A stretch of DNA of 51,672 bases, filler included, from Porpidia crustulata (GCA_964255105.1; 2 parts of 2 records of this genome joined end to end with filler, not necessarily neighbours in it); one strand, 5' to 3'. Counted from the whole stretch's first letter, positions 22,008 to 47,837 are shown. The notes: a model not told the origin generated them from the sequence alone. Numbers and translations are program-made.

Positions 22008-22089
22008 GCTGCGCTATGTCCAGAAATATTGCTCGTAGTCTGATCGGACCAAATGGTCTGGACTGGAGATCCGGACTCCGGAGTTAAGA

Positions 22090-22198
22090 TACTCATATCC
22101 ACCCCTCCTTCGATTATACCCCTAGTTCGAACACAGCACCTAGGGCTAGGGCTCAAAAACCACTGAGCCCTGACCCTAGGTGCTGTGTTCGAAGAGTA
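22090..22198. mobile_element. MITE-like element (family 1) with an internal 30-bp hairpin of telomere-like repeats
   Basis: Left end TACTCATATCCACCCCTC resembles the family TIR; right end GAGTA. Inner arms 22126-22155 and 22164-22193 are complementary at 28/30. Confidence 0.65.
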
Positions 22199-22569
22199 GT
22201 GTACACGCCAGCGGGAATTTGTAAATACGTCTAAATACATAGACTTTTGGAGCGAGTACCGAAGGTAGGTTGGTAGTCGGGCGTCCATAGCACTCTCGTA
22301 ATATGTACTCCTCATTGGGTTCGCATTCTACACCACAAGATTTGTACTTCACGTTTATGATTGACACTGATTGAATGACTCTATTATACTATTGCTTGGG
22401 GAGCGACGGTCGCCTCGGTCCATAATGAAAAATGCTATTCGGTTTCCGTCACAGAATTCTGTCTCCAAATTTGCCAAACAAACATCAAATCACTCACATT
22501 ACACTACAAGAAGCTAAGACGAAGTCTTGAGATATCAGAATGATTCCTCGATTTTCAAAATAGATATCA

Positions 22570-24948
22570 ATGACACAATCTGGCCGCTTAGGAAATGTGA
22601 AACTCAATTCAGCTTCACCGTCTATGATAATAGACAATTCCTTCATGTTACCACAGTCTCAGTCAGCCAGCATCTTACAAAATACCGGAGACCCAACTGC
22701 CTCTGAACCTGTTGGAACACCTCCTCTGATACCTGTGTCAAATCAGCAAAAGCCCAAGTCTCCGCACCGACCTCATTTGTATGACCGTGAGAATTCGCCA
22801 AGCACAAGTGCTAGGTCGTTTTCTTCGGCGGTCCTACAGGACCGCAAGGAAGAACCCCGGCAAATTATACTAAGGTCGTTTGCACCTTGTATCGCAGTAT
22901 ATGCATCGCCAGATGCCGAAGCCTTCATCGAGTCTAAGGGTTTCGATGAAGGGTTCAAGGGACTATTAAGACCATTTGGGGAAAGAATACAAGGGAAGGT
23001 TGTGGTGCGGGATAGTGTAGGTGCCAGTAGAAGCTGGGAGGACTTTGGCATAAGATTCGTCAAATATGAAAATGTTCAGTATTCACAAAAGGCATCTACA
23101 AGTACTACACCTACTCGTGTCGAGGGCAGCACTGAAGTCGCTATCCCGCCACATGGTTCTAAGCCGCCAACGTCCGAACATGGTCATCATATAACCGTAT
23201 CTGTTGACAGGGTCGTAGAGCATCAATTGCGATCAATAGGTGATCAGTCACTGGATATGACGAATGTTTATCTTGAATCTAAAGATGAACCCCGAACGCA
23301 GCCAGGTGAAGCATCTCCAGCTTATTTACTATATCTCCGGAAGCTCTTGTCGAGCATGCCCTTTGTGCCTTACGAAACATTCTCACATCCCGTCGCATGC
23401 GTTATTGCGGTCAGCTCACATAGCCCAGAGCCTATCGAAGTTCTTCGTCAACTGTATGCTAAGACTAGTCATGGTGGTAGTCACGATAGCCCATCGTGGG
23501 TTGGCAGCGACTATCTACGATACTACGTACTCATTCATGATGAAGAAAAGGATGAGATAACCAAATCTACAGCATTGTTCGACCTGATGAAAAGGCATTT
23601 TGGACTCAATTGCCACCTTCTTCGACTTAGGAGTTCCGGATGTATACAGACGGATGATGACAGCATACCAATTCCTCCTTGCGATTGGCTCTCTGCAGGA
23701 GAAGAATTAGCTGGTATTTGGAAGAGCGGTAAGTTTGTAATTCTCGAGATCGACGTAAGTCTGATATGTCTAGGTGTAGCCGAGACCATCGAGACTTTGG
23801 ACAAGTACATACTTGAGTCTGATGCAACCTCTATTAGGAGTTTCTTGAGGGAGATGGTGACACAATCCATCATACCGTTTATGGAAGGCCGTGTTGTGAT
23901 GTGGAATGATCAAGTGGCCTCCAGACGACGCGGTATCAGTGGTCGGTTTATGTCTATGTCGAAACGCTGGACAGGATTTGGGTCTGGCCGAGGGACTGCA
24001 TCTGCCGGTGGAGCTTTTCATCCTTCTAGTAGTAGCTATGATGCTCTGCGAGGCGTCTATCCACCAGAATCGTCCGAAGCAACACTGCGACAGCTTGCAG
24101 ATTACGCCTTCATGTTACGAGATTGGAAGCTAGCTTACAATACTTACGATATTCTACGAAATGACTTCAACAACGATAAGGCGTGGAAGTACCATGCAGC
24201 GGCAAATGAGATGGCAGCAGCCAGTTTTTTATTGATACCGCAAACAATAAATTTAAGATCAAGATCAGATATTGTTGACCAGCTACTAGAAGCTGCGTCT
24301 TATTCGTACCTAACAAGATGTTCAATGCCGTATGGCATCATAAGATGTTTAACTATCACCATGGAACTATTTCGAAGCCGCGGTCCTACTGCAGCACAGG
24401 ATGCCGCAAGATGGGGAGGCAAACTACTTGAATTCGGTGTTCTTACCCCTTTTGCTCAAGCTTTCCTCACAGAGCGCATGGCGGATTACTACAGAGCTCG
24501 TACGGGTGCGGGACTACTTGCCTTGGGGTCTCGCAAACGTCAAACAGCATTTTGGAGTCTGATGTCCGCAAACACTTGGGCGAGTTTAGGGATCTCTAGT
24601 CGCGCAAGGCGCCGACTTTCAGAGGCTGGGCTTTCTTATGGTATCGATACCGATTTGGGTCACGCCACCATGCCATTCTTGAACATGCGGGCATTTTGGG
24701 ACAGAACAAAGAAAATGGTGGAACACATCAATCAGAACCTCTTGACAGACTCGGATGGAATAAATGCGAGTCATGAAAGTCATTCTATGATAAATAATGA
24801 TAGTGAGCAGCTTGAATCAGTGAGCCGTCTTGTACCGGGTATCCAAACAATGGATACAGGAGACCATTTCAATCTGGGGGTCGGTGGAATACATCAATCC
24901 AGCACAGATTACACTTATGCCCAGCCTAGCAATGATGGCTTCGAGTGA
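22570..24948 (+). CDS. TRS85: TRAPP III subunit Trs85/TRAPPC8; probable 45-nt intron at 23729-23773
   Basis: LLRPFGE, HPVACVIAVSS, YLRYYVLIHD, MKRHFGLNCHLLRL, WNDQVASRRRGISGRF, RQLADYAFMLRDWKLAY, DKAWKYHAAANEM. Confidence 0.88.
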   Translation: MTQSGRLGNVKLNSASPSMIIDNSFMLPQSQSASILQNTGDPTASEPVGTPPLIPVSNQQKPKSPHRPHLYDRENSPSTSARSFSSAVLQDRKEEPRQIILRSFAPCIAVYASPDAEAFIESKGFDEGFKGLLRPFGERIQGKVVVRDSVGASRSWEDFGIRFVKYENVQYSQKASTSTTPTRVEGSTEVAIPPHGSKPPTSEHGHHITVSVDRVVEHQLRSIGDQSLDMTNVYLESKDEPRTQPGEASPAYLLYLRKLLSSMPFVPYETFSHPVACVIAVSSHSPEPIEVLRQLYAKTSHGGSHDSPSWVGSDYLRYYVLIHDEEKDEITKSTALFDLMKRHFGLNCHLLRLRSSGCIQTDDDSIPIPPCDWLSAGEELAGIWKSGKFVILEIDVSLICLGVAETIETLDKYILESDATSIRSFLREMVTQSIIPFMEGRVVMWNDQVASRRRGISGRFMSMSKRWTGFGSGRGTASAGGAFHPSSSSYDALRGVYPPESSEATLRQLADYAFMLRDWKLAYNTYDILRNDFNNDKAWKYHAAANEMAAASFLLIPQTINLRSRSDIVDQLLEAASYSYLTRCSMPYGIIRCLTITMELFRSRGPTAAQDAARWGGKLLEFGVLTPFAQAFLTERMADYYRARTGAGLLALGSRKRQTAFWSLMSANTWASLGISSRARRRLSEAGLSYGIDTDLGHATMPFLNMRAFWDRTKKMVEHINQNLLTDSDGINASHESHSMINNDSEQLESVSRLVPGIQTMDTGDHFNLGVGGIHQSSTDYTYAQPSNDGFE

Positions 24949-25707
24949 TACCGGCTTGACTAATAAATGCCACACATCGGGATTCTCAAGCTTTGGGTGA
25001 TTGGAAATGTTGCATGCAACGAAGATCTCGACAATGCGATACACAGATTTCCACTTCGGCGGGACCCAAAGGCAGGCGTCAACCCTATCAAGTGGGGATA
25101 ACGCTCAATCCATGGCATTCTGAAAGCTATTTTTGAGAGACACGACGCGACACATGGTTCAGCAGACTTCAAAAAAATTGAGACTACCTGGTAACACTAT
25201 CATGACGATCTTCCTGATATCTAAGATTAGTGTTATCTACTACGATACACAACCCGCTCACTGGCTCTCGTTCGCAGGAAGCCCGGGGTCAAAACCCAGG
25301 GCTGATCCTTCTCCCCCCCAGCGGATGGCTCAGATGAGGACAGCTTCGCCGGAGCTGCAACGACTGGACGTAGAATCTGTCAACTGCTACTTCTTCACAA
25401 GCAAAAGGCCTTCAAAAGCTAGGCCCGGCGTTCCCGAGTTTCCAATCCTCGTTAAATACGCCAATAATGTTTTGAAGAGGAGATAAGCTGAGGCTGACTT
25501 AAATCATCGGGGCAACGGTAAGTAGTCGCTTGGCGTAAATCGGTGTTCAACGACGAACATGGAGCTGAAATAAGTATTTCAGCGCGTCGTTATAATAGAC
25601 ACTCTTCTTGTCAAAGAGGCTGTTAAAAGTCAAGATTTTTTATTTTTCAATTTTTATTTCTTCATTTTTACGTGCTTATGCAGCCTAGGGCTATGAAGCA
25701 CTATTCT

Positions 25708-25729
25708 ATCTAATCTAATCTAATCTAAT
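25708..25729 (+). repeat. (ATCTA)4 short tandem repeat in the AT-rich contig end
   Basis: atctaatctaatctaatctaat. Confidence 0.7.
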
Positions 25730-25797
25730 ATAGACTAAATATAGATATCACAATTCAGTGTATGTACGAAAATTCCAAGTGGAATTTCCTAAATTCG

Positions 25798-25897
25798 NNN
25801 NNNNNNNNNNNNNNNNNNNNNNNNNNNNNNNNNNNNNNNNNTTAATTAATTAANNNNNNNNNNNNNNNNNNNNNNNNNNNNNNNNNNNNNNNNNNNN
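25798..25897. other. Assembly gap / artificial spacer: 44 N + TTAATTAATTAA + 44 N
   Basis: Exactly 100 nt and symmetric. The central palindrome has stop codons in all six frames, as in contig-joining linkers. Confidence 0.95.
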
Positions 25898-25949
25898 CAC
25901 CTTGATCCGGTGGGCTGCTGGGGATGTTGGGGAAGGTCTGATCGTAACA
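25898..25949 (-). mobile_element. 5' end of an LTR (TGTTACGATCAG...), truncated by the gap
   Basis: 52 nt identical to 28071-28122. Confidence 0.8.
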
Positions 25950-25988
25950 TTTATCAATTTATGCGTATTGAATATTTAATTATTATTA

Positions 25989-27366
25989 TTAATATAATCC
26001 TACCGCAACTTTAACTCTATGAATTGTCTCAATTGCTTTCCTGCGTGCATCACTAGTTCCTTTAATTAATGCATCTTCAAGATTTGTATCATATAACAGT
26101 CGATTATATCGAGTCCTTATGTCTATTAGGTTACTTGAGATAACATCTGTGACGAGCTGCTTGAAATCCTTCATTCTGAGAGTATGATAAACCTTGGCAA
26201 GCTCTTCCGGAGACCGACACCCGGGATCAAGATGTTCTAGGAGAGTAATAAGATTTGACACGCCTGGACGTGTGAGTGGATTGTAGGATACCCCGTCGAT
26301 TGAATCAGTGAGTGCGAGTCTGATCTTTTCTTCGATCATCCCAGGACTGTCGTTGATTAATATTCGAGAGCGAGGATCTGCATGAGATTTGGACATTTTT
26401 GATGTAGGCTCTTGAAGTGACATTATGCGCCTTGCGGATGCTTGGACAATATTAGCCATGGGCAATAGTAGGCAGCGCTTAGACCCTACAAAGTATCGTC
26501 ACAGGTTCTTGAAAGATCTTCTGTCCATAGACGGCATTAAACCCGTTGGCGCATTCTCGTGTAAATTCCAGATGCTGTACTTGATCCTCCCCAACTGGTA
26601 CATGCGTAGCCCTTGACAGATTAGATAGTTGATCGGTCACCATAATTTCGAAGAAGTGAAGTACCTATAGATCAAAATATCTGCCGCTTGCAGTACAGGA
26701 TAAGAGAACAACCCAAGCTTTAACTTAGCTCTAGTACCTAAGTCTCCGATGGTCGATCCGGTAGGGAGTGCTAGCTTGCTCTAAAGACTATCAATTTATG
26801 TTTATTGACTGCATAGCGTTTCGCCAATGATTTGACAACGAACCTTCCACTGTGTCATTCTAGAAAGGTACCCCACCGAAGCAGTGCAGCTTAGTATCCA
26901 CATCAACTCGGTATGGGCTGGAATCTGCGACCTCTTAATATTCGTCATCACAATGATTAGGACCCAGCCGGTAGTGTAGCCATACATCGGACTGAAAGAA
27001 GATTGTCGATCGCTCCGGATCTAGGCCTACGGCCAATAGTGCAGCCAGAGTCTCTCGTTTCCACCTCCGCAACTGTTCTGGATCTTGACGCGAAGTCAAA
27101 GCATGTAAGTCAACGATTGAAAACATCAATTGAGTCGTTGGTGCGGCTTCATTCTGTAATTTGACCCATTGTTGGAGAGCACCCAGATAATTTCCTAGGT
27201 GGGGAACGCCGGTAGGTTGTATACCCGAGAATATGACGGTTTTGGAGGAATGCCGAATTTGACGGGATGGGCCGCAATATTGGATAACCGGCCATGTGCC
27301 TAATACCCTACGTGCCACATAAGAAGCAGCCCAGTACTTGGTACATTCTGCCAGCGCAGCGAACAT
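25989..27366 (-). CDS. MSW1: Mitochondrial tryptophanyl-tRNA synthetase, multi-exon
   Basis: IFSGIQPTGVPHLGNYLGA (HIGH-like), IVDLHALT, RMTQWK, LFSYPVLQAADIL, VPVGEDQ, KMSKS, RPGVSNL, and a basic N-terminal presequence. Confidence 0.95.
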
Positions 27367-27477
27367 GACCTATTCATTGGGCGTTGGGAGCAATTGATGG
27401 GGTATGGTCGAAATAGAAAAGTGGACAGTAGCTATATTATTAGCGCTCGGCTGCAGCTTGCCGCTGTGCAGTACTTG

Positions 27478-27563
27478 TACTCGTTTTCACCCCTCAACGG
27501 AACAACTAGTGAAGATAACCCTAACCCTATGCCTGCTATTCCGTTGAGGGATGAAAATGAGTA
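27478..27563. mobile_element. MITE-like element (family 1, 86 bp) with internal TAACCCTAACCCTA
   Basis: TIRs TACTCGTTTTCACCCCTCAACGGAA (27478-27502) and its complement at 27539-27563 match at 23/25. TA termini. Telomere repeat at 27516-27529. Confidence 0.8.
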
Positions 27564-27919
27564 CTCCACGTCCGCAAAAAGCCCAGTCGGATGAGGCAGT
27601 GGACTAAGGCAATACTAATTAATAATTACTACGACCACGGATGCTATTCGATTAAAAGCAGTTCTCAGGATATCACAAGCCTCTATTCTACACCGGCCGT
27701 TTAACGGCCAGCCGCAAAGTGCTTTCAAGGCATTCAGGACTTAGGGCGCCATGCTCTAGACTTGCCTTGGGGCTAGCCCTACTAAGAGCGTTAGAAACTA
27801 AGGCAACTAAAAGCGTCTACAAATAATTCTCGTCCCAAGTCAGTCTCTGTTCAATCTCCGTTCACTTACAAAGACATTTAAACGCGATGTGTTAGGAACG
27901 TGCTTCGAAGGTCCCTTTC

Positions 27920-28122
27920 TGTTAGGGGCCTCCTAACTACCTAGCTATGGGGGTAAATCAACGAAGAAATAAATGCTAAGGAAGAAAGGAAATCCGGATG
28001 CAGAGCGGTATTTGGGGTGATGGGAAATTAGCAATGCTAGAGCGTCGCTAGGCCTCATTAGGCTCGGCACCACCTTGATCCGGTGGGCTGCTGGGGATGT
28101 TGGGGAAGGTCTGATCGTAACA
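27920..28122 (-). mobile_element. Solo LTR (about 203 bp), TGTTA...TAACA ends
   Basis: Inverted TGTTA/TAACA termini. Homologous to 1-308 and identical to 25898-25949 over 52 nt. No matching TSD (ctttc vs ccttg). Confidence 0.8.
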
Positions 28123-29343
28123 CCTTGTGCCTGCTGTTGTCTCTGTTGCGCTGCTTGCTCATGCTTCACCTCTTATGCTTCCATCCGCGCTAAAGTTATT
28201 CAAATTGAGAAGCGATTTGATGAGAGATCGGTTTGAAACCTCAACGTAAAGCCTTATTTGAGTAGCACTTGTTGGAATTTGGGGGTTGATGGATAATCTC
28301 CGCTACATGGGGCTGAGGACGCTAATAGAAATTTTCCTATTTCCTGTTCCACCCCTTGGATAACTTCCTAATAACAACATCAATACCAATGTCATCAATT
28401 CCATACCTGATCCGTCAACAGCACTAAATTTCATTCGAGGGGGTGTACGAGTAGGCAAAGGGGGTGTACGGTTGTTGATTCCTTAAGTAATACAACGAAA
28501 AAGATATTAAACAGTGGATCAAGTTACAGAATTATAAAAATGCATCGCGCAAGTCTAACGTCGAACAAACGAGGTGCTAAGAAGAACTAAACAAAGAAAC
28601 ATGACTCATTATGAATGTACTATGCGCACTATGTATTTGAAAAAGATGCAAAATGGATTTGTTCAGGGCTAAGTCTGCCCTCTCAATGTTCTCTCCACAT
28701 AAAGAGTAAGATATGCCATGTTTAGGACTTGCAGGGCCAGCCCGGGAGCACAAAAGTCTCTACAAGAAAATGCTCATACGGCCGGGCTGGCTTTTAATAT
28801 GCCAACGCAGACACTAATAGGTCGGTACCAAAACTCTTCATACTTCCGCTAGAGACATTGCCTACGTCGCGAACGCACGCCATAGCAATATATACTACAA
28901 AAAGTCCTTAAATTCCTCGCTGGCACTAGCTATATGTATTGCGGCATTCTCATATAATAGATGTACTATGAGCATGTACGATGTTTGCAATATGCGGCGT
29001 GGTACACCGCAAAGCCCGCTGAACCAGAGTATGTCCGAGGAGCTGTACAATTCACGATCACAGGCAAAGTAGCAGTAATGTGCGCTGGTAATCACAAGAG
29101 CTTTGGGCGGTAACTAGCTGTCGAATTCCGAGAATGGTGTGTTGGGAGGACGAGAGCTCCACTCGACGGTAACAAAGCGTGCCCACTTAGAACTTCGGAT
29201 AAGCTACCGTTCTCTTCCTTCTCCCTAATTCGGACTTAGTAGACCGGCAGGCGTCATCAGCCTAGCCTACTCTGATGCCAATGTATCGAGACATAGGACC
29301 GTAATAACGAGGTGAAATGTGTGCAACTTGTTGTATGTTGACA

Positions 29344-30339: not shown

Positions 30340-30531
30340 AGTAAATGACTTTCCATAAAGCTAAGCTTGCCGGGACTAAGTGTGAGGTGTAGCCATTTGC
30401 TTCGAATTGTAGCCTTCTACCACCTCGTTTATTAGCGCCATTTGCCGTCATCGGTAAATCAACAACATAGCATCGTGATTTGTAGTAATGGTTCCGAACG
30501 TCCATACAAGATGGACACATGACTCGTGAAA

Positions 30532-31838: not shown

Positions 31839-32052
31839 TCTCGAGCTGCGAAGGAGTCTAGGATACTCCTGAATACACCATCAATCTTAGCATTAGAAAT
31901 TCAAGGGGATCCTGAGAGCTCATGGATACTCCATAAGGGTCCGCCCCGGACTTACATGATTGCACGTTCTTCTTGACAAGTGTCAACGTGTGACTGCGGA
32001 AAGCCCCACTACTTGTGTCTAATCCCGCATTGATTTGAACAAACACCGATAA

Positions 32053-33067
32053 TCACCTATTTGATTGACTAGACCTCTTCGTCTTCAAATTATTGTAGAA
32101 CGCCTTCCTGCCACTGGTTTTGCGAGCCTGAATGTCAATGTATCTTCTCTTGAAGTGACCAGTAGAGTCCTCAGCAGCCAAGACTTCGTCTACGAAAGTC
32201 TTTTTACGGTCCTTGTTGTGAAGCCTAGAGCTGAAATATTCAGTGGGGCCTTCGATGAGAGTGCCAACTTGGAGAAAGTCTGGTGCTTTAGCTTGGATAT
32301 TCTCTTTCTTGTAATGCCTTTTAGGATCAAGAACGGATCGCATCTTGAGAAGTTGAAGGTCTCTCTTGAGTGCAGGGTTCATGATCGTACGTGGTAAGTT
32401 GAACCAATCTGAGCCTGCGTTGGCCTTTCTTGCCTGTCACAAGCTTTGTCAGCTTTAGCTAATAAAGCTTGTGGGGGTCTGTCAGTGCCGTGCAGCCCAT
32501 GCCTCAGAGTAACTATGTTGAAAAGCCTCTCAGGAATGCAGAGTGGTCGCCCAAAACGGGGCCAAAGGTTCTGCGTCGAGTGAAATGGGAAATTTTCTTC
32601 ATAGGCTAGTCGTCAAATGAGGTATGAGGGTAGCTCACCTGTATTAAATTCTTCTTCGCCTCGATAGGATCTTCCACGCGCCTACTTTGCTCCAAAAGCC
32701 GCCGATCAACTGTGTGTATAAACCTAGTGGCGTCTGCCCGAGCAATGCCATGGCTAGTGACCACATAAGGCCGGGCTATTCTCCCAACCTCAAGCTTGGG
32801 GCACCTAACCATGTATCAATGCTAGATTCAAGAAGACTGAACTGGGAGCTTGTACTTGTAAGATGTAGAAGACTGTGATCTGTATAAGCGCACCTCTGAC
32901 TTGGGAGAGTCATTGGTTCGATTTTCTAATCGTAGTTCTGCCCTCCTCAGAAGCTGGTTCATCTGCACATCAGTGATGTCGTCTGGCCTATCCTCAGCCC
33001 CATATTCAAGATCGTTGTCCCAGGTTTCTTCGCGAAGGACTTTTTCTTCGTCTGGCATTTCGAGCAT
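32053..33067 (-). CDS. FCF2: rRNA-processing protein Fcf2, multi-exon
   Basis: AGSDWFNLPR, LKRDLQLLKMRSVLDPKRHYKK, QVGTLIEGPTEYFSSRL..K.RKKTFVDEVL, KTSGRK. Confidence 0.88.
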
Positions 33068-33197
33068 CGTGCTGCGCAGAATTGGTAGAGAGTATTCGTG
33101 CGACGGAGAACTCTATGAATCGAATCGTGTATATCTTACCTTAGCGTAATGCTAGCCTTTTTGGCTAATTAGCCCTGTGCTCTAAAACTATTAAGTT

Positions 33198-33294
33198 TAC
33201 CCGTTCTCACCCCTCAACAGAACAACTCGGCTCAAACTAGAGAAGATAACCCTAACCCTAGATCTGCTGTTTCGTTGAGGGGTGAATACGAGTA
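33198..33294. mobile_element. MITE-like element (family 1, 97 bp) with internal TAACCCTAACCCTA
   Basis: Left TACCCGTTCTCACCCCTCAACAGAACAAC; right GCTGTTTCGTTGAGGGGTGAATACGAGTA. The internal CTAG.GAAGATAACCCTAACCCTA is shared with 27478-27563. Confidence 0.8.
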
Positions 33295-33697: not shown

Positions 33698-35008
33698 ATG
33701 GAACAGAACCAATCAGGCTCCGCGCAGCAACAGCAACGGCAACCTCCACCAGTTTATGACCCTAATAATGGTGGACACTACGGTATGCTACCTCTCAAGT
33801 TGATGTTGAATGTCTCTGGGGCCAAATAGATTTCCCAAGGTTCTAGAATACTGCTTCTAGGAAACGTGCAGTCGTGAATAAGGCTAATGTTCTGCGGTAA
33901 AATAGGTGCAAGTGCAGCAGTACGTACCTAATTGCATCTGCAAGCGCAGTTGTTTACAGTGATCATTGTCATTACTGATGTTCGTAGCTCTCAGCGCAGG
34001 GCTATGCGCCGATAGCTGATTTGTATCAAGGAGCATGGGCCAATGTACGAAAGACGCCGCTAGCTACTAAAGAACGGCGAGTCTTGTCGAGAGCTAACTG
34101 GGATCAGGTCAATCAAGGTCTCCATGGCGCCTACCGCGATATTTTATCCACCTACTGGCAGCAGACAATCAGCGCCCTGGAGACCGAGACACATGACTAT
34201 AAGATTCACCAGCTACCTCTAGCCCGGATAAAAAAGGTTATGAAAGCCGACCCAGAAGTAAAAATGATATCTGCAGAGGCGCCTATACTTTTCGCCAAAG
34301 GCTGCGATATCTTTATCACAGAGCTTACAATGCGAGCATGGATTCATGCCGAGGAGAACAAACGACGCACACTACAACGTTCTGACATAGCTTCAGCCCT
34401 TGCCAAGTCGGACATGTTCGATTTCTTAATCGATATTGTCCCACGGGAAGAAGCTGCGAGTCACGCTAAACGAAATCCTACTCAGGGTGGAACCAGCACA
34501 ATCGGAGGTCCTGCATCGTCAACTCAAGGAAGCGGCCAGCTACTACCCCCGCAGAGCAATGTACAGCAACAGCCACAATCTGGACACTCCCAGCAGGCAC
34601 AGCATCAGATGGGGCCTCCTGAATACCCCTCGCTCGGCACTAATCCCATACAACAAGATCAAGAATATCGACAGCAGCCAGGAGGAATTTACGCGCCACA
34701 AGTGCCACCTGATCCAACGGGAGGATACGTGCAACCGCAACAGCAGATGTTCGAGGGGATGTATGGCTATCCGCAAATGGCGCCCCAACAGGTTCGTTTA
34801 TTCTTCATTTGATCGTAATTGTCGACCATAATTGGTGTCAATCCCAACATACGAGTGCTAAATTCTGAAAACATCGCAGATGTACCAAGTTAATCAAAGA
34901 GGCCCTGATCCATCAGGTGGCCAAGATCCCAGTCACCACTACCAAAGGCACGATGGTGGCGAGGGCGACGTAGACGCCGAAGGCGATAGAGATTATGAAG
35001 TCGGCTGA
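33698..35008 (+). CDS. hapE: CCAAT-binding complex subunit HapE (Hap5/NF-YC); includes a 14-nt microexon at 33907-33920
   Basis: Histone fold [68 protein letters not shown] and a Q/P-rich tail. Confidence 0.95.
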
Positions 35009-35526
35009 TACTTTGGCTCTTGGCCATAGATTCTAGTTGTCCCTTTGTTAATAGTATTTACGAGCTTTTGAGATTGGTGTTTCACAGGCTGGGGATTTCG
35101 AACAGGTTGGGGTTTAGTCAATTTGCAGATTGCAAATAACGGGAACATCAAAAGCTTATCAAGAAGGACGGGAGAGTAGACATCGGTCGACGAACCCTTC
35201 CGCGGTAGTCTACATTGCAAAGCGTCATTGGGTTATAAGTAGACCTCGTTGGGGAATACGCTATTGCTGTGTGCCGTCAAGAAATGTATTGAACTCCAGG
35301 TAATTCCACCGGTGCATTGGGTAGTGAGATACACAACGACAACGTCGTTAAAACACATCTAAATGTATTCTTATAAAAGATGAATTCAACCCCGTGGCTC
35401 CAGGATTCTGGGACACTTTCCGGAATTCAATACGTTTCATGACTGTCTTGCAGAACATCGTGATTGACGAGAATATATATGACGGATGTTGCGGGGTGGT
35501 AAAGTCGTCTTGTTGTATAAGGAACT

Positions 35527-38377
35527 TCAAGACTTCATGCCGAATCTTGACGATAACGCAGTAAACTTTTCTGCCTTCGTCGGGCTTTGTATGAAATATG
35601 TAAGCCTCATCAATTGTCAGTATGTCTCAGTCGTGAATTACCCATCAGGCAATAGGTGGGAATTATAGCAAAATATACTTCTCAAGTAGGATAGGTCCAT
35701 TCAGAGCATCCACTCTTCCGTACTTCTTGTTCCTTGTTGAAACATCATAAAATTCATCCGAGTTCTCGGCTTGCATCAGGGTTACTGTCTGCTGCAATTC
35801 ATCTAGGTTCTCTCTAAGTATAGGATTTCCTAATGTATCCACAAATTCTGTGAGGTAGTCAACGTCTTTTGCGAGAGACGCAACTCCATTTGGATTTATC
35901 CGTTTCACGTCGACAGAAAGAGGAAGCGACTATCCTCGGACAGTTAGCACCTCCTTACCCATCATATTGATGTGAGAGAGCTCACTAATATCATAGTAGC
36001 GGCATGACTCAGTGCATCGAAATATATAAGCTCCTTGATCTCTGTTGGCAGGCCAAGAAGGACCGAGTTCATGATATTCGACAAATAGCGTGTCAGTGTC
36101 TGCATATAGTTGCTAGGTTCATTCTCCGGAGCCAGTGCCATCCTGAACTTGAAAGGTCAACAATGTAAATTGTAGCCCTAAGACTGGTTGCCAGGCACAG
36201 CAATCATCTGGATATTCCTGCACTTACCAGTCGTATTCAGCCGTCTCTATCAGATCATCAATCTTAGAATTGACGAGCTCAAATATACGCTTTTCAGCGG
36301 TCTTCTTGTTACTGCGAAATTGCTCGGTGGCATTTAGGGTTATACTTCCACCCGCTGAGGCAGCAGATCTAGCCGCAATAAGCAGCAGCTCCAACTCTTG
36401 GCACGCAGTCTCGAAATGCTCTAGATTAATGAGGATCTGCACAATCTGGCCAAGATACTGCGAACTCAACCTTTCAACCAACGAGCGACATACTTTCTCA
36501 GAGAGCAACTGATCCAGTGACTACAGATCATGTTAGCAATTTGTAAGTTCCACCCGAGAGTCGTCTTCGGAGAAGGCAGCGTACTATCTTCAGAGTTTCG
36601 TCTATGACCCTTGGATGCTGGAAATGGTCATCCGAAAAGAAGTAGAACTGATTCAAGAAGTTCCGTATGTCAATACAGCAGAGTGGATACATTTGGGAGA
36701 ATGGAAGTACACAGGGAAATCTGCTATTGATTAGGCCCGACCTGGATAAGGATATGCTTGAATGATAGTACCTAAGCTCTTCATGAGCTTTGTCAGGTGT
36801 ATACCATGTGACATTCACTACTTTTTCATATTCATCCAATTTATTAATAGGCATCGGCATGTAGTCATCCGTTGAAACGATCTAAAATAGAACTTGAGAA
36901 GTCCCAAAAAATGCATCGTGGTAGGAATACTTACCTCTTGGAAATCGTCACTAAATCTTCGCTTTAGTAGCTCGGCGTACTTTTCAAATAGAGTAAGTAG
37001 AAAAGTATCAAGTGCGCTCACGGGATAATTCCATGACTGCTCTACATTAGCTATCATTTTCGATGAATTGGATGTGGGCAAAGGACCACTTGCGTCCATT
37101 GTTTGAATGAAAAGTGCAATGACGGTCTTAATCTTAAGTAGCACTTCGGCGTTAGCAACCTCATGCAGTGCTTTTGAGATTAGCGAGATGGCTGTTTGGC
37201 ACATTGAGTCCCAAAGCTCGTCGACCTTTACGTTATAAGTTCTAGCAGATGGAAGGATTGGGCTTTGCATTGCGTACGTCTGCCACAGATCGGAGCCCAG
37301 GAGCCTTCTTAATCGTTGCCTTCTCGACAATAGCAAAGCCGGCAATCCCTTCCAATAGCTCACTAAGGCTTGTACCTTCCGGGTCTATTAGGGTTATGGT
37401 AAGGGGCATCAAAAGATCTTTCTGTTGCCTTCGAGTAGCAGCATACTCAGCTCGAAACTTATCAATCTGCCCAAGGGCCTCTTGTATATGAAGACATTCG
37501 AGTAATGGAGTGAAGTCCACCTGAACATCTTCGTTGTCCAATATGTCAAATTCTTCATTCTCATCGGATACTAATTCAATCGCAGAGTTCAATTTGAAAT
37601 TGCTCATGGAAGTCAACTTCTCCGCTCGCTCCTTCTGCCTAGTCCGCCTTTGCTCCGTATGGTAAAAAGCTACTTCACCCAAAAATTGAGATGTTTCTCT
37701 GATACGAAAGAGCCATGTATTCAGATCGGTCATGACGGCCTCAGTCATTAATTTCTTAGTTGCAGGTACAGACTTCTGAATCATCTCTGATATTTTATAC
37801 GGTGTAATCTCTTTCAGATGCACATTCTGTAACTCGTCAAGCGCACGTAAAGCAGAGTAGTGGCTCTTTCTACCTAAAAGATCATGAACCTGATTGACTC
37901 GACGAAGGACCTCCAAGCAGTCCTGCAGAGCCTGAGTAGCTTCGTCGATGTTCTGGCGTACTTCACGCGACTCAACAAGAGCCTTCTTTTGTTCTGCTAA
38001 ATTCTCTGTACTGGATTGTATCGATTGATTCAGCCCGAGGATCTCAGCAGTCAATTTGACAGTGCCTTCCCGGACGTGAAGCAATTGATTGACTGAAGTG
38101 ACGAAACCCTGATGATTGGTGTTGCATATGCTCTCAATTTCCGACTCCCGATTGTTGTAATATTGAGTGAATGATTGTAAGAGTAGCTGCCCTCGACCAC
38201 CATTACTAGCATCCTGAATTGCAGGAATAGACTGGCTAAAGTACTCATTGTCGGTTGGGGACAAAATTATCTAAAGCATTGTTGAGGGTCAGCGACACAG
38301 CAAAGCAGTAGTAATCGGTCATGTACCTGCTGCACAACAAGCTCAAGCTCAGTGCGGGAATCCAGAAGCGCAGGCAT
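35527..38377 (-). CDS. SEC15: Exocyst complex component Sec15, multi-exon (GC-AG intron at 37037-37093)
   Basis: EIESICNTNHQGFVTSVNQLL, HYSALRALDELQ, VDFTPLLECLHI, IAGFAIVE, CVLPFSQMYPLCC, QIVQILINLEHFE, VNSKIDDL, LIYFDALSH. Confidence 0.92.
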
Positions 38378-38512
38378 ATCGCTGGGTTCTTATGCAACTA
38401 TTATTACTAGATCAGGGAAAGAAACACACATTACAATACCGCAGCCGACGTGGTCCTCTAGTCAATAGTGGGAGTGCTATCGCGTAAAGTGATAGAGTTG
38501 TCTGAGAACCCT

Positions 38513-38625
38513 TGCTAGTAGGCACCCCTTGACCGGTCACCGTACGCTAGAGATGATGCTGAGCCCTAACCCTAGGTATGAAGACCGGCTGGGGGGTTTG
38601 ACCGAATGAAGGGTAATTACAAGTA
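38513..38625. mobile_element. Degenerate MITE-like element (family 1) with CCCTAACCCTA
   Basis: Arms are complementary at about 17/27; the right arm reverse complement is TACTTGTAATTACCCTTCATTCGGTCA. Internal CTAGAGA..TGAGCCCTAACCCTAGGT is shared with the 33198 and 22090 copies. Confidence 0.55.
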
Positions 38626-42600: not shown

Positions 42601-42665
42601 ACCTTGGTGGGCAGTGCAGCATAAGGGTCCCAGGAACATCTCACACAGGATTTGAAGTCTATTGA
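39609..42665 (+). CDS. mei2: Mei2-like RRM RNA-binding meiotic regulator; many short exons in the C-terminal RRM
   Basis: N.VDVDRIRQGTDVRTT|IMLRNIPNKIDQ, YDFMYLRIDFANNCNVGYAFINF, NSDKVAEVSYA, KFRNSSVMLEHPSFRPKIF, PGPDNPSKMRRSVENA. Confidence 0.9.
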
Positions 42666-43309
42666 CACGCTGTCCTCCAACGCGGTAAGAAGCCCTAAGC
42701 CTCTCAGGATAATGAGCTCACTATGTTCACATAGAATTCGGGCTTGTGGCTTTAATGGCCAACGCAGAAAATGACGCGAGCTTCAACATGTTGGAACATC
42801 AGTTGTTTGTTGGTCGCAGCCGTAGACAGATAGTCTGTTGTTATCTGAGGCTCACAGTAAAAGCTATGGAGAATTTCGCCTACTTGTACAAGAGTGTTGG
42901 GAGAGCTCGAGAATTTCTTATTGGCGCAGTTGTTACTCTTCCACTATCTTGGGCCAACTTGCAACAGCCACCATGTTCGTTTGAGTTCTATCGCAATGTC
43001 AGGGTTACCTGTGGCTCTCTTTGGTCCTCGACTTGCAATACATTATATTTAATGCTTGTCGCATAATTCGCTCAAGGAAAAAGCTTGTACAATACTTTAG
43101 CTAGAAAAAATAAATCCAGAAAGTGTAGTCGGAAATAGTATAGTAGGGTAACTGCTTGTTTGAATACCTGGCCGTACCTCTGGATTGCCCATGGGTAGTT
43201 GATACTACATTCGCGATAGTTTCTTCTTTGCTGACGTACTCACCAAAAGCCTGTTGACATTTAGAACTGCTAAATCACGAGGTCATTGAAGCTACACTGG
43301 CACACTGGC

Positions 43310-44042
43310 ATGGATAGAGACCTCGGAAACCAATTACGCCAGTCGCAAGATGTGATCAGTCTGCTTTACCACCGTAACAAAAATCAGCACCGCCAGGCGA
43401 AATGGTGGCGTGTCCTGTCCATTCTACGACGGTGTGTGGAAAAATGCATCAAAGAGCTGGATTGCTCTGATATGGAACGATGCACGGCTAGGGTGATATA
43501 CATGAATCAATTTCTACTACCACGCTGCTATATGTAAGTGGACTAAACTTAGCTGTGCATGGCATCATCTCCTAATAAGGCATAGATCATTCACCCAGGT
43601 AATTCAGGACAATCAATTTTCCTCACTTGGCATAGTGCTAGTCGCGCTGCTGTCAAAACTTCAGACAATTACCAACTCGATTCGCGGCGACTGGCAAAAG
43701 AAGGCTGCACAGTCTCCTACCGATGCTTTGAGTGTAAATAGCGATTCTCAAATTGAAGACATTGGCGTGGTAGTGCGGAGATCTCCCGCACCTGACTACT
43801 CAGGGAAACCTCACTCGAATCACCCGCTAGTTGTGGACGAGGGACACTCGATTGATGGTACATTGGTCAAAATCCGGCAAGCTAAGTCTGAGTCTGAATC
43901 ACGGGGGTTGAAAGCTGATACAAGAATGACTTTCCACAGCAACAGACATGTTACTCAGTTCCAAGAACATACAAGAGCGGTCCGCGGGAAGAAAGGTGTC
44001 ACGGCCGATGCTATCAATGACATTTTTCAGGGGGTTGTGTAG
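43310..44042 (+). CDS. RMP1: RNase MRP protein subunit Rmp1-like (2 exons)
   Basis: LLYHRNKNQHRQAKWW, P.CY..FTQVIQDNQFSSLGIVL, EDIGVVV.R and C-terminal AINDIF. Confidence 0.72.
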
Positions 44043-44077
44043 GTAGAGTACGAGACACCTTGTCTACATGGAAATCG

Positions 44078-47069
44078 TCAAGATAATAGCCAGATTGCCA
44101 GACTTCCATAGCCTACGTTAACACAGAGGTGTTGACCAATACTCCAGGCAATTGTGTAAATATACTTCGGCGAGAACACAGTCCATATGAACAGATGTCT
44201 TCTCAACGCCGTACACGCAAGCATGGTGAATAGGATGTTAGTAGCCGTAAAGGTGGTCAGCAGTGCTAAGTGCCGAACCAATGATTCTTTGCGCCTTCCA
44301 TGATACTCTCGATCTATAAGAGGTTGTGCAGATGTCCACAGTAATGGACCGGCCCAATTGCCACAGAAAGTGAGCAGACCGACTGCCGCGGCATTGTATC
44401 CACTGATGCCATTGTAAGCATTGGAAAGATCAATAGATGATATAGCATTTGATCCTCCAAAGGCGAAGAACGACGTATATTGAAGGACTATGATGGTTAG
44501 CGTAATTTCATTGGGGTTGAGTTTTAGGGACCTCAATGCCTCGATCTGTAAGTCAAAGCAGAGGAAGAGTGGTATGTTGGTGACTCGAGTTTGGGTTGCG
44601 AGGAAGAGATTGAGGAGACAATGAAGTGGCCTTAGGATGCCTAGCCACAAGGTTTCAGTATTTCGAAATGGCCACACATTACAGGAGCATACCATCATGA
44701 CTCTCTTCTGGCGTAATTTGTAAAGCCTTAGAAAGAAGTATCAAAGTCACAAAAGTGCCGATGCCTACAAAAACAGCCCTAGCCTGTACTACGAGTGAGA
44801 CTCCGTCCAACATTTCTAGAAGGCCTGTAGGAAATCCGATGAGTAGTTCCGGAGCCTCTGCTTCTGTGAAAGCTATTTTGTGTCCTAGCGCTACAGCGCA
44901 CAAAGCAATAGCACAAACAGTCGGAACAAATCGGCTTGCGCTATGGAAAGCCTTTCGCGCGAGTTGCTGGGTGATGTTGAAGTAAGTCCCAAAGACTAGG
45001 AACCAAAGCACCCAATTATGGAGAGGGAGCATCGTCCTTGCGATGTCGGGTTCACCAGCATGTTTCTGGCCGGTTTGGTTCCACTTTCGAATTACCTGCA
45101 TAAGGGCAAGAACAATCATTGCTGGGACGTATGACATCGTGCCGTGCTTTGTGTCCCGAAGACTGGATCTGTCAGTTTTGAAGCCGAGCCGAGAATTAGA
45201 TTATGTACTAACGAATTTACAACCTGCCAACCGAGCCAGGAAGAGGTGACCCAATACCAAAATTGTTGCTCCTCCTCAACATAGCTGCTTGCGAACATCA
45301 TAATTCCATAAACGATGCCGATCGATATGATCCATAATTTAGTTGTTCTCGTATGCGCTAGCGCTCGTCCTGAAACTAAAAGCGCGGCCGTTGTCGCCAA
45401 CGAAGCGATGCATATGCCGGTGTAAAGTCTTGGAAGATCATAAGTACTCGCAGTGCCGCTAATGATCTCTTGAGCACGTTCCGAAAACTACGCGTTGTTA
45501 GTCTTGAAGCAGGAGGTCGATCCATGCCAGACTAACTGCCGTCAAAGCCCAAAGTGCTTCAGTCGTATTGTCACGTTTTGAATGATCCAATGCGTGCACC
45601 ACATGTGACCACAGACGACCTAAGATTTCTCCGTCAGACTCCTTGTGCGTATCATCTGCTATTGCCGCCTCTTTGTCAAAAAATTGGCTCGCAAATGTTC
45701 CTTTAACTACGTTTAGGATCTGACGAGCGTTTTGTTGCATAAGAACAACTCGATCTTCTTAGTCAGTGTAAGTATGAACCTCGACGATCCCAGCTTTTGA
45801 CCAGTGCAGAACGAACCTTCACGCCAAAAAGCCAGCAAGTCGGGGATAAATACCCCCAGGTTATTGCGAGGCACTGGAAATGCCAAAAGTCCTGCAATGG
45901 TTGGTGCAATGTCGGACTGCTCAACCTTGCTGTAATAGTGGAATGGTTTTGCTGTATGAGCTATTGGGCACATTGACCCTGTTGAGATGTTTTGGAGTTT
46001 GGGGGAAATGAAAACTAGGGCAGGGGACGTTTCGCCATCTGCAGAACCCCCGTGATTCCCGGCATCGTTCATACCGTGGTCTCCGCAAAGCACGAGGAGA
46101 GTAGAACGGAGGTGCTCCTTGGTCTCAATGGCTTCATAAATCTGCTGGATAACATCGTCCATCTCTAGTTGCTTTGGGATCATGTGTGGACTGCAACGAA
46201 TTTAGCCTTTCTACACATGGCACTCAGCCAACAAATCAAAAGTACCTCTTTGGCCCCAGCTTATGGCCAATGTGATCGAGGCCAAGAAAGTGCATGAACA
46301 TGCCGTTCCAATCAGGCTTGTTCAGTTCTTCAGGAACATGCCTCGTCACGTTGTTATCCACTTCAGTATGATCCTGGCGACATTGAATTTAGTATTTATA
46401 TATACATTGCCGCCGCCAATTGAAGTACTACTGACCGAAACAAAAAAGCTTGACGTCCCTTCTGCACGAGAAAATGTGTCAGGAAATAACTTTAACCATG
46501 TGTCATCCCCATACATAACAAGTTTCCCCCCCGGCTTGGCTTTCAGCTGCGCTAGCCATGTGTCCTGATGAGCTAAATTCGAAGTTGTGTCCGACTCCGC
46601 AAAGTTCAATATCAAGTCAATGAAGGAAGGCGTAGATCCAGTGGTGATGGCTTTGATCCGGGGCATCGTGATGGTGGGGGAGGTAGCATGAGCGGTGAAC
46701 GGCATTGCTGCACCTGACCTTATGAGGCTGATTTCTGATCAGCTATTGCATTGAATTTCAACACGTCTTGCGATTACCCTTGGGTATACTTAAAGCCTGA
46801 ATTGGGGGAATACACAAAGTCACTGCTTTACTTAGTCAAAGAGGGTAACAGAGGCCACGAGATCTTGACCTTCTAAGCGCATCAACGACCATGAACACAA
46901 CCTTGTCGAATGGCGGTTCTGGTATTTGTTCAACCCCAACATCTTCATAACTGGCAGTTCCAGGGAGAAAGGGTTTGTAAGGAAAGAAGCCAGATGCAAA
47001 GACAAGGATTGCTAAGGGTATCAGTAAGTTCGCGATCGTCAACAGCGGTACAGAATTCTGGAAAGGCAT
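44078..47069 (-). CDS. GPI7: GPI ethanolamine phosphate transferase 2 (Gpi7/Las21/PIG-G), multi-exon
   Basis: FASGFFPYKP, FDKVVFMVVDALR, PTITMPRIKAITTGS, YGDDTWLKLFP, HFLGLDHIGH, GDHGMNDAGNHGGS, GGSNAISSIDLSNAYNG, RRHLFIWTVFSPKY. Confidence 0.93.
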
Positions 47070-47141
47070 CGAATTAGCTCTGGGATAGTCAAGAAGGGAT
47101 TTCCATGCTGGTTGACATGCTGCTGCATGGAGAAAGCGAAA

Positions 47142-47265
47142 TGATATTGCGGTCCCGAGATTCTGAAGTTCTCACGATTAAGAGTGCCGTACCCGACTAA
47201 CCCTAACCCTGAGGCTCGTGCCGGATTACAATTAGTGCGCAAAAGTCTCCGGGACTGTTACATCA
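47142..47265. mobile_element. MITE-like element (family 2, CAGTCCCG-type inverted ends) with central CTAACCCTAACCCT
   Basis: Left TGATATTGCGGTCCCGAGA versus reverse complement of the right arm TGATGTAACAGTCCCGGAGA. Telomere repeat at 47197-47210, in the middle. Confidence 0.5.
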
Positions 47266-47698
47266 AAATTATTTCGGGAGCTGAAGCGCTGCGCCCTCAC
47301 GCCCCCAGGCTGCACCCCAAAAGGAATACTAAGTCGCTAGACCTAATGACCTGCTCGATGTACTGCTACATATGCTTGGTCGTAAGAGTTTTCGGATGTT
47401 GTGAAATACAATATACTATTCTGCTTCTTTAAACTTTTGAGTGTCGTTTTAACAAAATAGAAAGATGTAAATTATACAAACATTATGTTATTCAATCTTC
47501 ATATATGAAGATCTCAAAATTTCAAGCGAGGATCGTGGCCAAATTCCTAACATAAGTGTATATATTTATATAATCTTGTACAGAACTGTAAAATTGCAGA
47601 ATTAGAAATTTCATAGCGTAACTATCTATCAATTTCTTGGATTTAACAAAGTTATCTTGATAAATTAGTTATTTGACATCTATCTAAAAGGTACTTAT

Positions 47699-47837
47699 TA
47701 CTCGTTTTCACTCCTCATCAGAACACACCCCTGATCGGACCACCTCAATCAAAACTAGCAAACTAGGAAGAGGAGACCTAAACCTAGGTGTAATGGTTCG
47801 CTAAGGGATGTGGTCCGATGAGGGGTGGAATCGCGTG
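47699..47837. mobile_element. MITE-like element (family 1 variant) with a duplicated left TIR and a decayed telomere motif
   Basis: Left TACTCGTTTTCACTCCTCATCAGAACAC followed by ACCCCTGATCGGACCAC; right GTGGTCCGATGAGGGGTGGAATCGCGTG. Internal CCTAAACCTAG at 47777-47787. Confidence 0.7.

Follow-up and report, generated by a model that had tools for sequence, protein, structure and literature searches.

A multi-copy, MITE-like family of short elements with a telomere-type core is present in the window, the stretch of 51.7 kb of fungal DNA analysed here, where sites with this core lie close to the start codons of five genes. The first-pass annotation had proposed that such elements form a portable promoter or insulator module, and this much of the proposal stands. 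The explanation that we tentatively favour, at a little less than an even chance, is that of a MITE whose telomere-like core may have been kept as a candidate site for a protein of the Tbf1/Tay1 type. It is doubtful that a MITE installed a putative double telomere-repeat site, at a near-fixed distance and in one orientation, before many ordinary genes while its ends rotted away; in that event the family would be a fungal counterpart of the transposon-borne insulator and factor sites of animals and plants.

In mammals and plants there is ample documentation that transposons spread factor-binding sites. To our knowledge, the evidence on fungal MITEs near genes so far consists of correlations with expression, and one set of them proved dispensable; we also know of little on the non-telomeric roles of Tbf1/Tay1-type proteins in filamentous fungi. 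If the favoured explanation is true, the family would be a concrete, testable example of a mobile element wiring promoters or insulators in the Pezizomycotina. Its kept cores and lost ends would be a built-in record of selection, and a non-telomeric role would be added for Tbf1/Tay1-type proteins in filamentous fungi.

Structure and membership of the element family

A check of the window recovered all six flagged sequences (e1–e6) at the positions listed below.

22090–22198, plus strand: e1, rearranged member on a different contig; left terminal repeat kept at 15/18
22141–22151 and 22168–22178: cores of e1, TAGGGCTAGGG (plus-strand reading) and CCCTGACCCTA, one mismatch each, both inside a palindrome; motif 161 bp before the CHM7-like ATG at 22007
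27478–27563, plus strand: e2, best-preserved copy, 86 bp, with TA at both ends
27478–27502 and 27539–27563: terminal repeats of e2; the inverted repeat detected here has 26-nt arms, 92% complementary
27519–27529: core of e2, CCCTAACCCTA, in the loop, 153 bp before the ATG at 27366 of mitochondrial TrpRS (minus strand)
33198–33294, plus strand: e3, 97 bp, 85% identical to e2 over 60 nt
33250–33260: core of e3, 183 bp before the Fcf2 ATG at 33067 (minus strand)
38513–38625, plus strand: e4, decayed member, repeats largely lost; the right end, TACTTGTAATTACCCTTCA (reverse complement), matches the consensus at 15/19, and the left end retains CACCCCT
38564–38574: core of e4, intact, 187 bp before the Sec15 ATG at 38377 (short first exon)
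47195–47211, plus strand: motif of e5, CTAACCCTAACCCTG, within the flagged region 47142–47265, 132 bp before the GPI7 ATG at 47069
47699–47837, plus strand: e6, long variant of 139 bp with good repeats; the left arm contains a second terminal-repeat-like copy
47776–47786: core of e6, ACCTAAACCTA, decayed

The family element is non-coding and 86–139 bp long. Its terminal inverted repeats of 24–27 bp, with the consensus TACTCGTTTTCACCCCTCAACGGA, enclose a short loop, AACTAG..GATAACCCTAACCCTAG, which corresponds to 1.8 telomere repeats and includes a match to ARCCCTAA, which we take to be the site word of yeast Tbf1. Clear copies of one element are e2, e3 and e6, each with a central CCCTAACCCTA-like core; e4 and e1 are decayed or rearranged members, and e5 has only the motif in common with the family. 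Six elements had been annotated, and leave-out nhmmer searches assign five of them to one family and leave e5 as a motif-only site. A profile built from e2 and e3 detected e6 (E = 2.3e-8) and e4 (E = 1.6e-3) and missed e1 (E = 0.74) and e5 (E = 1.9). The profile of e2, e3 and e6 detected e4 (E = 7e-4) and e1 (E = 0.027), and with e4 added to the profile the match to e1 reached E = 7e-7. The copies are homologous. Beyond the motif, e5 had no match in any of the nhmmer profiles (E of 1.9 or worse); it may have decayed completely from a family copy or have arisen independently.

Folding of the DNA, compared with 200 shuffles per site, bears out the proposed inverted repeats at four of the six sites (z = -11.1 for e1, -8.0 for e2, -3.4 for e3 and -5.1 for e6) and not at e4 (z = -0.75) or e5 (z = +0.49). 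The signal of e1 is due not to terminal repeats but to an inner palindrome with 30-nt arms (22126–22155 and 22164–22193, 93% complementary), which is an inverted duplication of its right half. The terminal-repeat consensus, previously ascribed to five of the sequences, is found at both ends of e2, e3 and e6, at the left end only of e1, weakly at the right end of e4 (15/19, p ~0.03) and at neither end of e5. TA ends are present in most of the sequences, as had been described (both ends in e1, e2 and e3, left only in e6, right only in e4). A TA target-site duplication could be distinguished from the repeat ends themselves only with an empty site, and none was observed. In agreement with the annotation, the inverted repeats end in TA and belong to a family that is MITE-like. 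On the best explanation, the elements would be a small non-autonomous DNA transposon, a TA-ended Stowaway-like MITE; the TA ends, the one pointer to Tc1/mariner, make that attribution a putative one.

Neither Rfam nor tRNA searches produced a match in the elements. Pfam domains were absent from the element-crossing open reading frames 22007–22327 (minus strand, over e1) and 27304–27591 (plus strand, over e2), and from 47145–47429 (plus strand), which crosses most of the flagged e5 region. No transposase family was detected by Pfam in 124 of the 146 stop-to-stop reading frames of at least 75 residues and 16 ATG-initiated reading frames of the window.

Dispersal of the family

Evidence for further copies comes from the contigs of run X1, the one public run containing the DNA of the window; this run probably supplied the window itself, and other organisms in the sample could be the origin of some of its contigs. 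The match of six X1 contigs starts exactly at 27478, where the e2 terminal repeat begins, and the flanks preceding this position disagree among the contigs (consensus agreement 0.47). At position 33262, within e3, the depth is 149.9 against a base of 11.4, which corresponds to about 12 extra copy-equivalents of at least 80% likeness; only about 6–12 extra copies align at this level or above in the X1 contigs. The bin of e4 has a depth of 16.1 against 11.4, and that of e5 has no excess depth in the run. The element is multi-copy with unrelated flanks in these contigs, as had been supposed, and because of the exact e2 boundary, the unrelated flanks and the extra e3 copies the family appears dispersed and mobile.

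Placement relative to gene starts

The host belongs to the Pezizomycotina and is a lichen-type fungus, with lichen-forming Lecanoromycetes as its nearest named relatives. Pfam agrees with the previously assigned identities of the five genes next to e1–e5 (Snf7/CHM7-like, mitochondrial TrpRS, Fcf2, Sec15 and PIGG/GPI7). Start codons were assigned on the basis of the sequence alone, and the distances were re-measured by eye and by script. The motif lies 161, 153, 183, 187 and 132 bp from the ATG in e1–e5, respectively (mean 163, s.d. 23, n = 5 in the window), and the element edge 82, 111, 130, 135 and 72 bp from it, in each case before a minus-strand gene. If placement within the five host spacers were uniform, the probability would be 1.2e-4 for a range of 55 bp or less and 4e-3 for all sites lying within 200 bp, values that are post hoc, as the tests were framed after the data had been seen, and that refer to a single 51.7-kb window. 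TTAGGG is on the coding strand at all five genes in the window, for which the chance is about 1 in 16, and e1 holds the core in both orientations. The "fixed position" of the annotation therefore survives as a narrow distance and one orientation at five gene starts, but a true member, e6, lies elsewhere; the nearest identified start, the ATG of GPI7, is about 707 bp away, and no start was recognised nearby.

The copies in the window occupy intergenic DNA on the 5' side of genes, and divergent gene pairs flank four of the five host spacers. Among the Pfam-identified genes of the window, hosts account for five of eight on the minus strand and none of nine on the plus strand, and hosting by minus-strand genes alone is not predicted by a general promoter module. 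The same direction of all copies on the contig might mean that insertion or retention is tied to the chromosome axis, for example to the direction of replication. At the 12 Pfam-identified genes without a flagged site (three minus, nine plus), the corresponding position holds no site within two mismatches.

Enrichment and conservation of the telomere-like core

With at most one mismatch, CCCTAACCCTA occurs seven times in the window against 0.51 expected, and none of 100 shuffles reached seven. The exact word CCCTAACCC occurs four times, always on the plus strand and in 5' intergenic DNA; all four occurrences are in flagged elements, 132–187 bp before an ATG, and three are in demonstrable family members. 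ARCCCTAA is found ten times in the window, six of them outside MITE copies, against 2.53 expected (0 of 100 shuffles reached ten); it is exact in e2, e3, e4 and e5, while e1 and e6 each deviate from it at one position. No enrichment is seen for the single hexamer CCCTAA, with 25 occurrences against an expectation of about 25 by rough arithmetic.

The motif is better kept than the repeats, as had been claimed, with 3 of 55 alignment cells mismatched against 92 of 373 elsewhere (Fisher p = 7.6e-4), in a test that is biased because the best block serves as the anchor of the alignment, and in which differences between repeats may reflect subfamilies and not decay. The core is the best among 79 sliding 11-column windows of the alignment, and the mean pairwise identity is 0.89 in the core, 0.70 in the left repeat and 0.46 in the right repeat. 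Promoter-side e4 and e5 have an exact CCCTAACCC core and have lost the repeats, e5 deviating from the 11-mer at the last base; e6, far from a gene start, retains the repeats, and its core has two mismatches. The core is preceded by AACTAG..GATAA and followed by G in all copies, and because the copies share the core together with these flanks, it was already present in the ancestor. An interstitial telomeric sequence produced by telomerase healing or chromosome fusion was considered and rejected, as there are only 1.8 repeats and the flanks are shared by all members.

Origin of the promoter-associated sites

In the favoured explanation, a transposase of the Tc1/mariner superfamily would have moved the element in trans into TA sites of nucleosome-free promoter DNA. 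Where the core came to lie about 130–190 bp ahead of a start codon and the coding strand read TTAGGG, selection would have retained the candidate site, and its candidate binder is a Myb-type TTAGGG-binding protein, a homologue of Tbf1 or Tay1. The bound protein could hold the promoter open, shield it from a divergent neighbour, or both, and the inverted repeats, now useless, would decay. The cores of e1, which are one-mismatch variants that do not match ARCCCTAA, count against this explanation.

It is somewhat unlikely, in our estimate, that the core is a passenger in a neutral, promoter-seeking MITE that prefers open, TA-containing DNA upstream of transcription starts. The core would then be left over from the parent element or be used by the transposition machinery, with no role for the host genes; the "fixed" position would follow from how wide the nucleosome-free region is, and the common orientation would be chance. 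The dispersal of the family with sharp ends at the repeat in run X1 is in line with this, as are the weakness of the orientation bias (about 1 in 16) and the small number of sites, five or six. Precedents are the MITEs of Epichloe, located in gene-rich DNA directly upstream of start sites (PMC6218096), and the promoter mimps of Fusarium, which are dispensable for expression (PMC3599309). However, a passenger would decay at the rate of its element, whereas 3/55 and 92/373 mismatches are seen; the core is kept and the repeats are decayed in e4 and e5, with the reverse in e6; and the motif-only e5 has the same distance and orientation. The presence of the motif at the same place in e5 without detectable MITE sequence also agrees with the telomere-like word being an ordinary promoter element of this fungus, with or without a MITE. 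The MITE would then not be the distributor and would have taken the word from a promoter, or be tolerated only where it supplies a needed site. The enrichment of ARCCCTAA, including the six occurrences outside MITE copies, is on the side of this possibility, and Tbf1-type sites are established in yeast ribosomal-protein and snoRNA promoters (PMC2834713, PMC7952879). We nevertheless judge it quite improbable, given that every exact CCCTAACCC is in a flagged element and three of four are in demonstrable members, that the 12 genes without a flagged site lack the word at the equivalent place, and that CCCTAA is unenriched.

That the sequences are not mobile, and are chance or convergent palindromic promoter sequences or telomerase-healing scars at broken hairpins, has very little probability. 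Short repeat families of two or three copies are frequently due to chance, and e4 and e5 fold no better than shuffles, but the leave-out profiles recover e6 with high significance and also detect e4 and e1 significantly, matches in other contigs begin precisely at the end of the repeat and have unrelated flanks, and the core of 1.8 repeats with its common flanks points to an ancestor that had both.

Comparison with known systems

TA is both the target of the mimp elements of Fusarium oxysporum and the flank of Stowaway elements, plant hairpin MITEs that start with CTC and are mobilised by mariner-like transposases. Plant teloboxes, short telomere words in interstitial positions, occupy fixed places close to start sites and are recognised by Myb proteins. 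Both Stowaway elements and teloboxes resemble the present family, in another kingdom. The telobox and MITE literature, as far as it was available in excerpt, including the telobox/TRB references (PMC9498494), yielded no description of a telobox inside a Stowaway-type MITE.

The mimps are mobilised by impala, of the Tc1/mariner superfamily, and are likewise short non-coding elements with terminal inverted repeats located upstream of genes in a filamentous ascomycete; their deletion from SIX promoters left expression unchanged (PMC3599309). They mark effector genes on accessory chromosomes and lie anywhere in about 1.5–2 kb upstream, and no telomere-like core is described in the available part of that report (PMC3599309). 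By contrast, the present family, compared by description only, is found at ordinary single-copy genes, at 132–187 bp, and has a telomere-repeat core. MITEs of Epichloe festucae such as EFT-9m are similar to the present family in being located in the gene-rich part of the genome and over-represented immediately upstream of transcription starts, and a role in linking genes into a regulon has been proposed for them (PMC6218096). They are linked to genes induced in planta, with no binding motif named in the accessible sections of the source, whereas the present family lies at genes of constitutive type and has a specific, conserved candidate motif.

In Zymoseptoria tritici, also from the Pezizomycotina, the MFS1 promoter has multi-copy repeat inserts with an annotated TTAGGG "TBF1 element" (PMC5656749). 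In these inserts of about 150–500 bp, which drive over-expression of a drug pump, the hexamer appears among several motifs matched in a database and, judging from the excerpt available, is unlike the present core in not being a conserved part of a MITE at a fixed distance (PMC5656749).

The yeast Tbf1/Tay1 (Teb1) systems resemble the present one in their TTAGGG-type promoter words, which are bound there by Myb proteins (PMC4551913, PMC7952879, PMC2834713). Tbf1 shields the promoters of divergent gene pairs in yeast (PMC4551913), Teb1, the fission-yeast homologue of Tay1, regulates transcription (PMC7952879), and at least six proteins that bind double-strand TTAGGG, among them homologues of Tbf1 and Tay1, are present in Neurospora (PMC4650311). 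Off telomeres, the yeast proteins act as insulators in divergent pairs and at snoRNA and ribosomal-protein genes, and four of the five spacers here are divergent. The available parts of these sources do not report the yeast sites as carried by transposons; the candidate sites described here, recognised by their sequence only, lie in MITE-like elements except at e5. The palindromic pair of cores in e1 recalls the TTAGGGN6CCCTAA requirement of Candida albicans, with a spacing of 16 bp between the 11-mers and not 6.

Inverted-repeat elements with a telomere-like core

Intron-bearing fungal genes are present in the window, and 17 of them were identified with Pfam. The nine on the plus strand encode UBA1, a GST, a RING protein, Trs85, a PNP-type phosphorylase, a histone-fold protein, an RRM protein, RMP1 and a SIZ/PIAS ligase. 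The eight on the minus strand encode an aspartyl protease, Pol32/Cdc27, a Snf7/CHM7-like protein, mitochondrial TrpRS (MSW1), mitochondrial ribosomal S10 (RSM10), Fcf2, Sec15 and PIGG/GPI7. The best named homologues of Trs85 (792 aa) are about 50% identical and belong to lichen-forming Lecanoromycetes, with two further relatives at 62–63%; judged from these homologues, the host is a Pezizomycotina fungus. The linker at 25798–25897 (44 N, TTAATTAATTAA, 44 N) connects two contigs, the first being 1–25797. Therefore, the gene neighbourhood across that point is not real, and site e1 is not on the contig of e2–e6.

The sequences that the first-pass annotation described as six inverted-repeat elements are present at the following positions.

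Flagged sites, start codons of the host genes and re-measured distances from core start to ATG
22090–22198, e1; CHM7-like gene, minus strand, ATG at 22007 (read from sequence); 161 bp
27478–27563, e2; MSW1, minus strand, ATG at 27366 (first codon of its open frame); 153 bp
33198–33294, e3; Fcf2, minus strand, ATG at 33067 (read from sequence); 183 bp
38513–38625, e4; Sec15, minus strand, ATG at 38377 (short first exon); 187 bp
47142–47265, e5; GPI7, minus strand, ATG at 47069 (product opens with a membrane segment and GFFPYKP); 132 bp
47699–47837, e6; no recognised gene start close by

Five of the six are members of one family in varied states of decay, and e5 is a motif-only site. Homology was assessed by leave-out profile searches, in which copies omitted from a profile were then sought with it. 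A profile of e2 and e3 found e6 (E = 2.3e-8) and e4 (E = 1.6e-3). The profile of e2, e3 and e6 found e4 (E = 7e-4) and e1 (E = 0.027), and e1 was matched at E = 7e-7 once e4 had joined these three. Membership of e5 was rejected; it has no match past the motif (profiles, E = 1.9 or worse) and the terminal-repeat consensus at neither end. The ends of the family are TACTCGTTTTCACCCC. The terminal consensus claimed for five copies was found at both ends of each of e2, e3 and e6, at the left end of e1 and, weakly, at the right end of e4. Copies e4 and e6 have the repeat variant CACCCCTGA.CGG..C in common. The TA ends reported for most copies occur at both termini of e1–e3, where a TA duplication is not separable from the repeat itself.

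Comparison of hairpin potential with 200 shuffles per site showed that e1, e2, e3 and e6 fold better than all 200. There was no such excess for e4, which 45 of its 200 shuffles equalled, or for e5, equalled by 133. The folding signal of e1 comes from an inner palindrome with 30-nt arms, not from terminal repeats. At 22126–22193 the right half of e1, including the core, is duplicated in inverted orientation, the 30-nt arms being 93% complementary. The palindrome thereby holds a palindromic double site, in which two telomere-like cores face each other across 16 bp; both cores are one-mismatch variants. Neither Rfam at the gathering threshold nor a tRNA scan gave a match on the elements, which are therefore no known RNA family and no SINE of tRNA origin.

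The motif is strongly over-represented in the window. At up to one mismatch, CCCTAACCCTA was seen seven times against 0.51 expected, a count reached in none of 100 shuffles. Exact CCCTAACCC occurs four times, always on the plus strand, and the C-rich strand is the plus strand of the window at all six flagged sites. A relaxed scan of the window (up to two mismatches) gave 16 matches against 8.96 expected, a count reached in 4 of 100 shuffles, and no additional promoter sites. The Tbf1-site word ARCCCTAA is present in ten exact copies, with 2.53 expected. Six of these lie outside the MITE copies, at 275, 5729, 36174, 36334, 37388 and 42691; the Sec15 gene body contains three of them, and another precedes the RMP1 ATG by about 620 bp.

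Placement before start codons

Start codons were taken from sequence reading; the short first exon of Sec15 is needed because the domain begins upstream of the large frame's first ATG. On this basis, the motif-to-ATG distances of the first-pass annotation were re-measured as listed above. Its description of a fixed position applies to the five sites 132–187 bp before an ATG; it does not extend to e6, for which the GPI7 start is about 707 bp away. Between the ATG and the nearer edge of an element there are 82–135 bp, or 72 bp for the flagged e5 region. The spacer of e2 is about 2.1 kb, yet the edge of e2 is only 111 bp from the MSW1 ATG. Divergent genes flank four of the five host spacers. In a post hoc simulation with one site placed uniformly in each of the five spacers (e5 included, e6 omitted), a range of at most 55 bp arose with a frequency of 1.2e-4, and the five sites all lay no more than 200 bp from a 5′ end with a frequency of 4e-3. 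The 72 bp that separate the GPI7 start from the flagged e5 region (47070–47141) contain three upstream ATGs, and MSW1 has one, 11 bp ahead of its start. Transcription of MSW1 and GPI7 may begin very near the coding ATGs, or these genes may have short upstream reading frames.

Among the Pfam-identified genes of the window, the motif precedes the ATG of five of the eight on the minus strand and of none of the nine on the plus strand. The minus-strand genes for the protease, Pol32 and RSM10 have no such motif, and it is therefore not general to ordinary promoters. A functional site would account for the gene-relative orientation, but not for the absence from plus-strand genes; that absence may be due to an effect of the chromosome axis or may have arisen by chance (about 1 in 16). 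Hosting by minus-strand genes only, with the same orientation at all six sites, is not accounted for by a simple promoter module.

Dispersal of the family

Of three sequencing runs listed, only one contains this DNA, probably as the source of the window itself; no RNA run with the stretch was listed. When its contigs were compared with the window at 80% likeness or more, six started matching at exactly 27478, the first base of the e2 repeat, and their flanks before this point were mutually discordant (agreement 0.47). The summed depth at 33262, within e3, was 149.9 against 11.4 for the locus, about a dozen extra copy-equivalents. This count is a minimum where diverged copies are concerned, and some of the contigs may come from other organisms in the sample. 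Depth was slightly higher in the e4 bin (16.1), with no rise in that of e5. Such a pattern is characteristic of a repeat that ends sharply at the inverted repeat. The proposed MITE-type family is upheld by the profile matches together with dispersed copies that have unlike flanks; a non-mobile or chance origin of the sites is accordingly most improbable. Two scans of ORFs in the window, one covering 124 of 146 and the other 16, found no transposase domain.

The other two runs, from other organisms of the same study, matched the window at 80% likeness over coding parts only (for example, the histone-fold and Sec15 genes) and not over promoters. A metagenome scan for repeat plus core found no copy of the element; six loci were telomere-type repeat runs in unrelated contigs. 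The same element search gave no matches in a prokaryote genome collection or in viral contigs. With the repeat on its own as query, the prokaryote collection gave a single match, on a Bacillus chromosome, which was taken as chance.

Retention of the core and possible function

In an alignment of five copies, the 11 core columns were compared with the other well-occupied columns. Mismatches occupy 3 of 55 core cells and 92 of 373 elsewhere (Fisher p = 7.6e-4), a test that is suggestive only, because alignments tend to be anchored by their best-matching block and some of the repeat differences may be those between subfamilies. The core is the best among 79 sliding windows, and mean pairwise identity is 0.89 in the core, 0.70 in the left repeat and 0.46 in the right repeat. 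At the promoter sites e4 and e5, exact CCCTAACCC and ARCCCTAA are kept and the repeats are gone; by contrast, the repeats of e6, a copy distant from a start codon, are well preserved and its core carries two changes. This difference points the same way as the preference for core over ends. The earlier picture of a near-intact telomere repeat within diverged ends is supported in that the core is the best-kept block; e6 departs from it.

The likeliest reading of these observations, a tentative one, is a Stowaway-like MITE with a loop-borne double site for telomere-type Myb proteins, retained where useful; both binding and function are putative. The element would insert in open promoter DNA, and a useful site, most plausibly of the Tbf1 or Tay1 type, would be retained and could keep the promoter open or shield it against a divergent neighbour. 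A neutral MITE that seeks promoters is rather unlikely, being consistent with the narrow placement and less so with the better-kept core of e4 and e5. It is improbable that the motif was already present in the promoters and is only carried by the MITE; the motif-only site e5 would suit this explanation. As regards the putative retained binding site, yeast Tbf1 is described as an insulator within divergent gene pairs (PMC4551913), and as active at snoRNA promoters, with fission-yeast Teb1 a transcription regulator (PMC7952879). Candida Tbf1 is reported to need the palindrome TTAGGGN6CCCTAA (PMC2834713), and for Neurospora at least six double-strand TTAGGG binders are described, Tbf1 and Tay1 homologues among them (PMC4650311).

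Fusarium effector promoters are described as carrying mimp MITEs, whose deletion was without effect (PMC3599309), and in Epichloe several MITE families are reported as enriched directly upstream of start sites (PMC6218096). For Zymoseptoria promoter inserts, the TTAGGG hexamer is given as one of several database motif matches (PMC5656749). MITEs upstream of fungal genes are thus known already. The literature searched, including that on lichen MITEs and represented partly by summaries, yielded no fungal MITE with a telomere-repeat core, and none with such a conserved core at a narrow, oriented distance before ordinary genes. For animals and plants, it is a familiar idea that transposons distribute factor sites.

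Other features of the window

Another repeat family, far commoner than the MITE and not related to it, is present at the following positions.

27920–28473
102–240, minus strand
25898–25949

A 129-nt stretch at 27957–28085 matches 102–230 in inverted orientation (86%), and the first 52 bases of the second contig are identical to 28071–28122. In the run containing the window DNA, the bin 27470–28136 has a depth of 2568, compared with 11.4 elsewhere, and loose ends are numerous at 27920, 27950, 28420 and 28473. This family probably breaks the assembly at this point. Another organism, represented by one of the other two runs, has a 27.5-kb contig on which a match to the histone-fold gene is followed by matches to Sec15 exons (window 34150–38096), with order and strand as in the window; therefore, the two genes are neighbours in that organism too.
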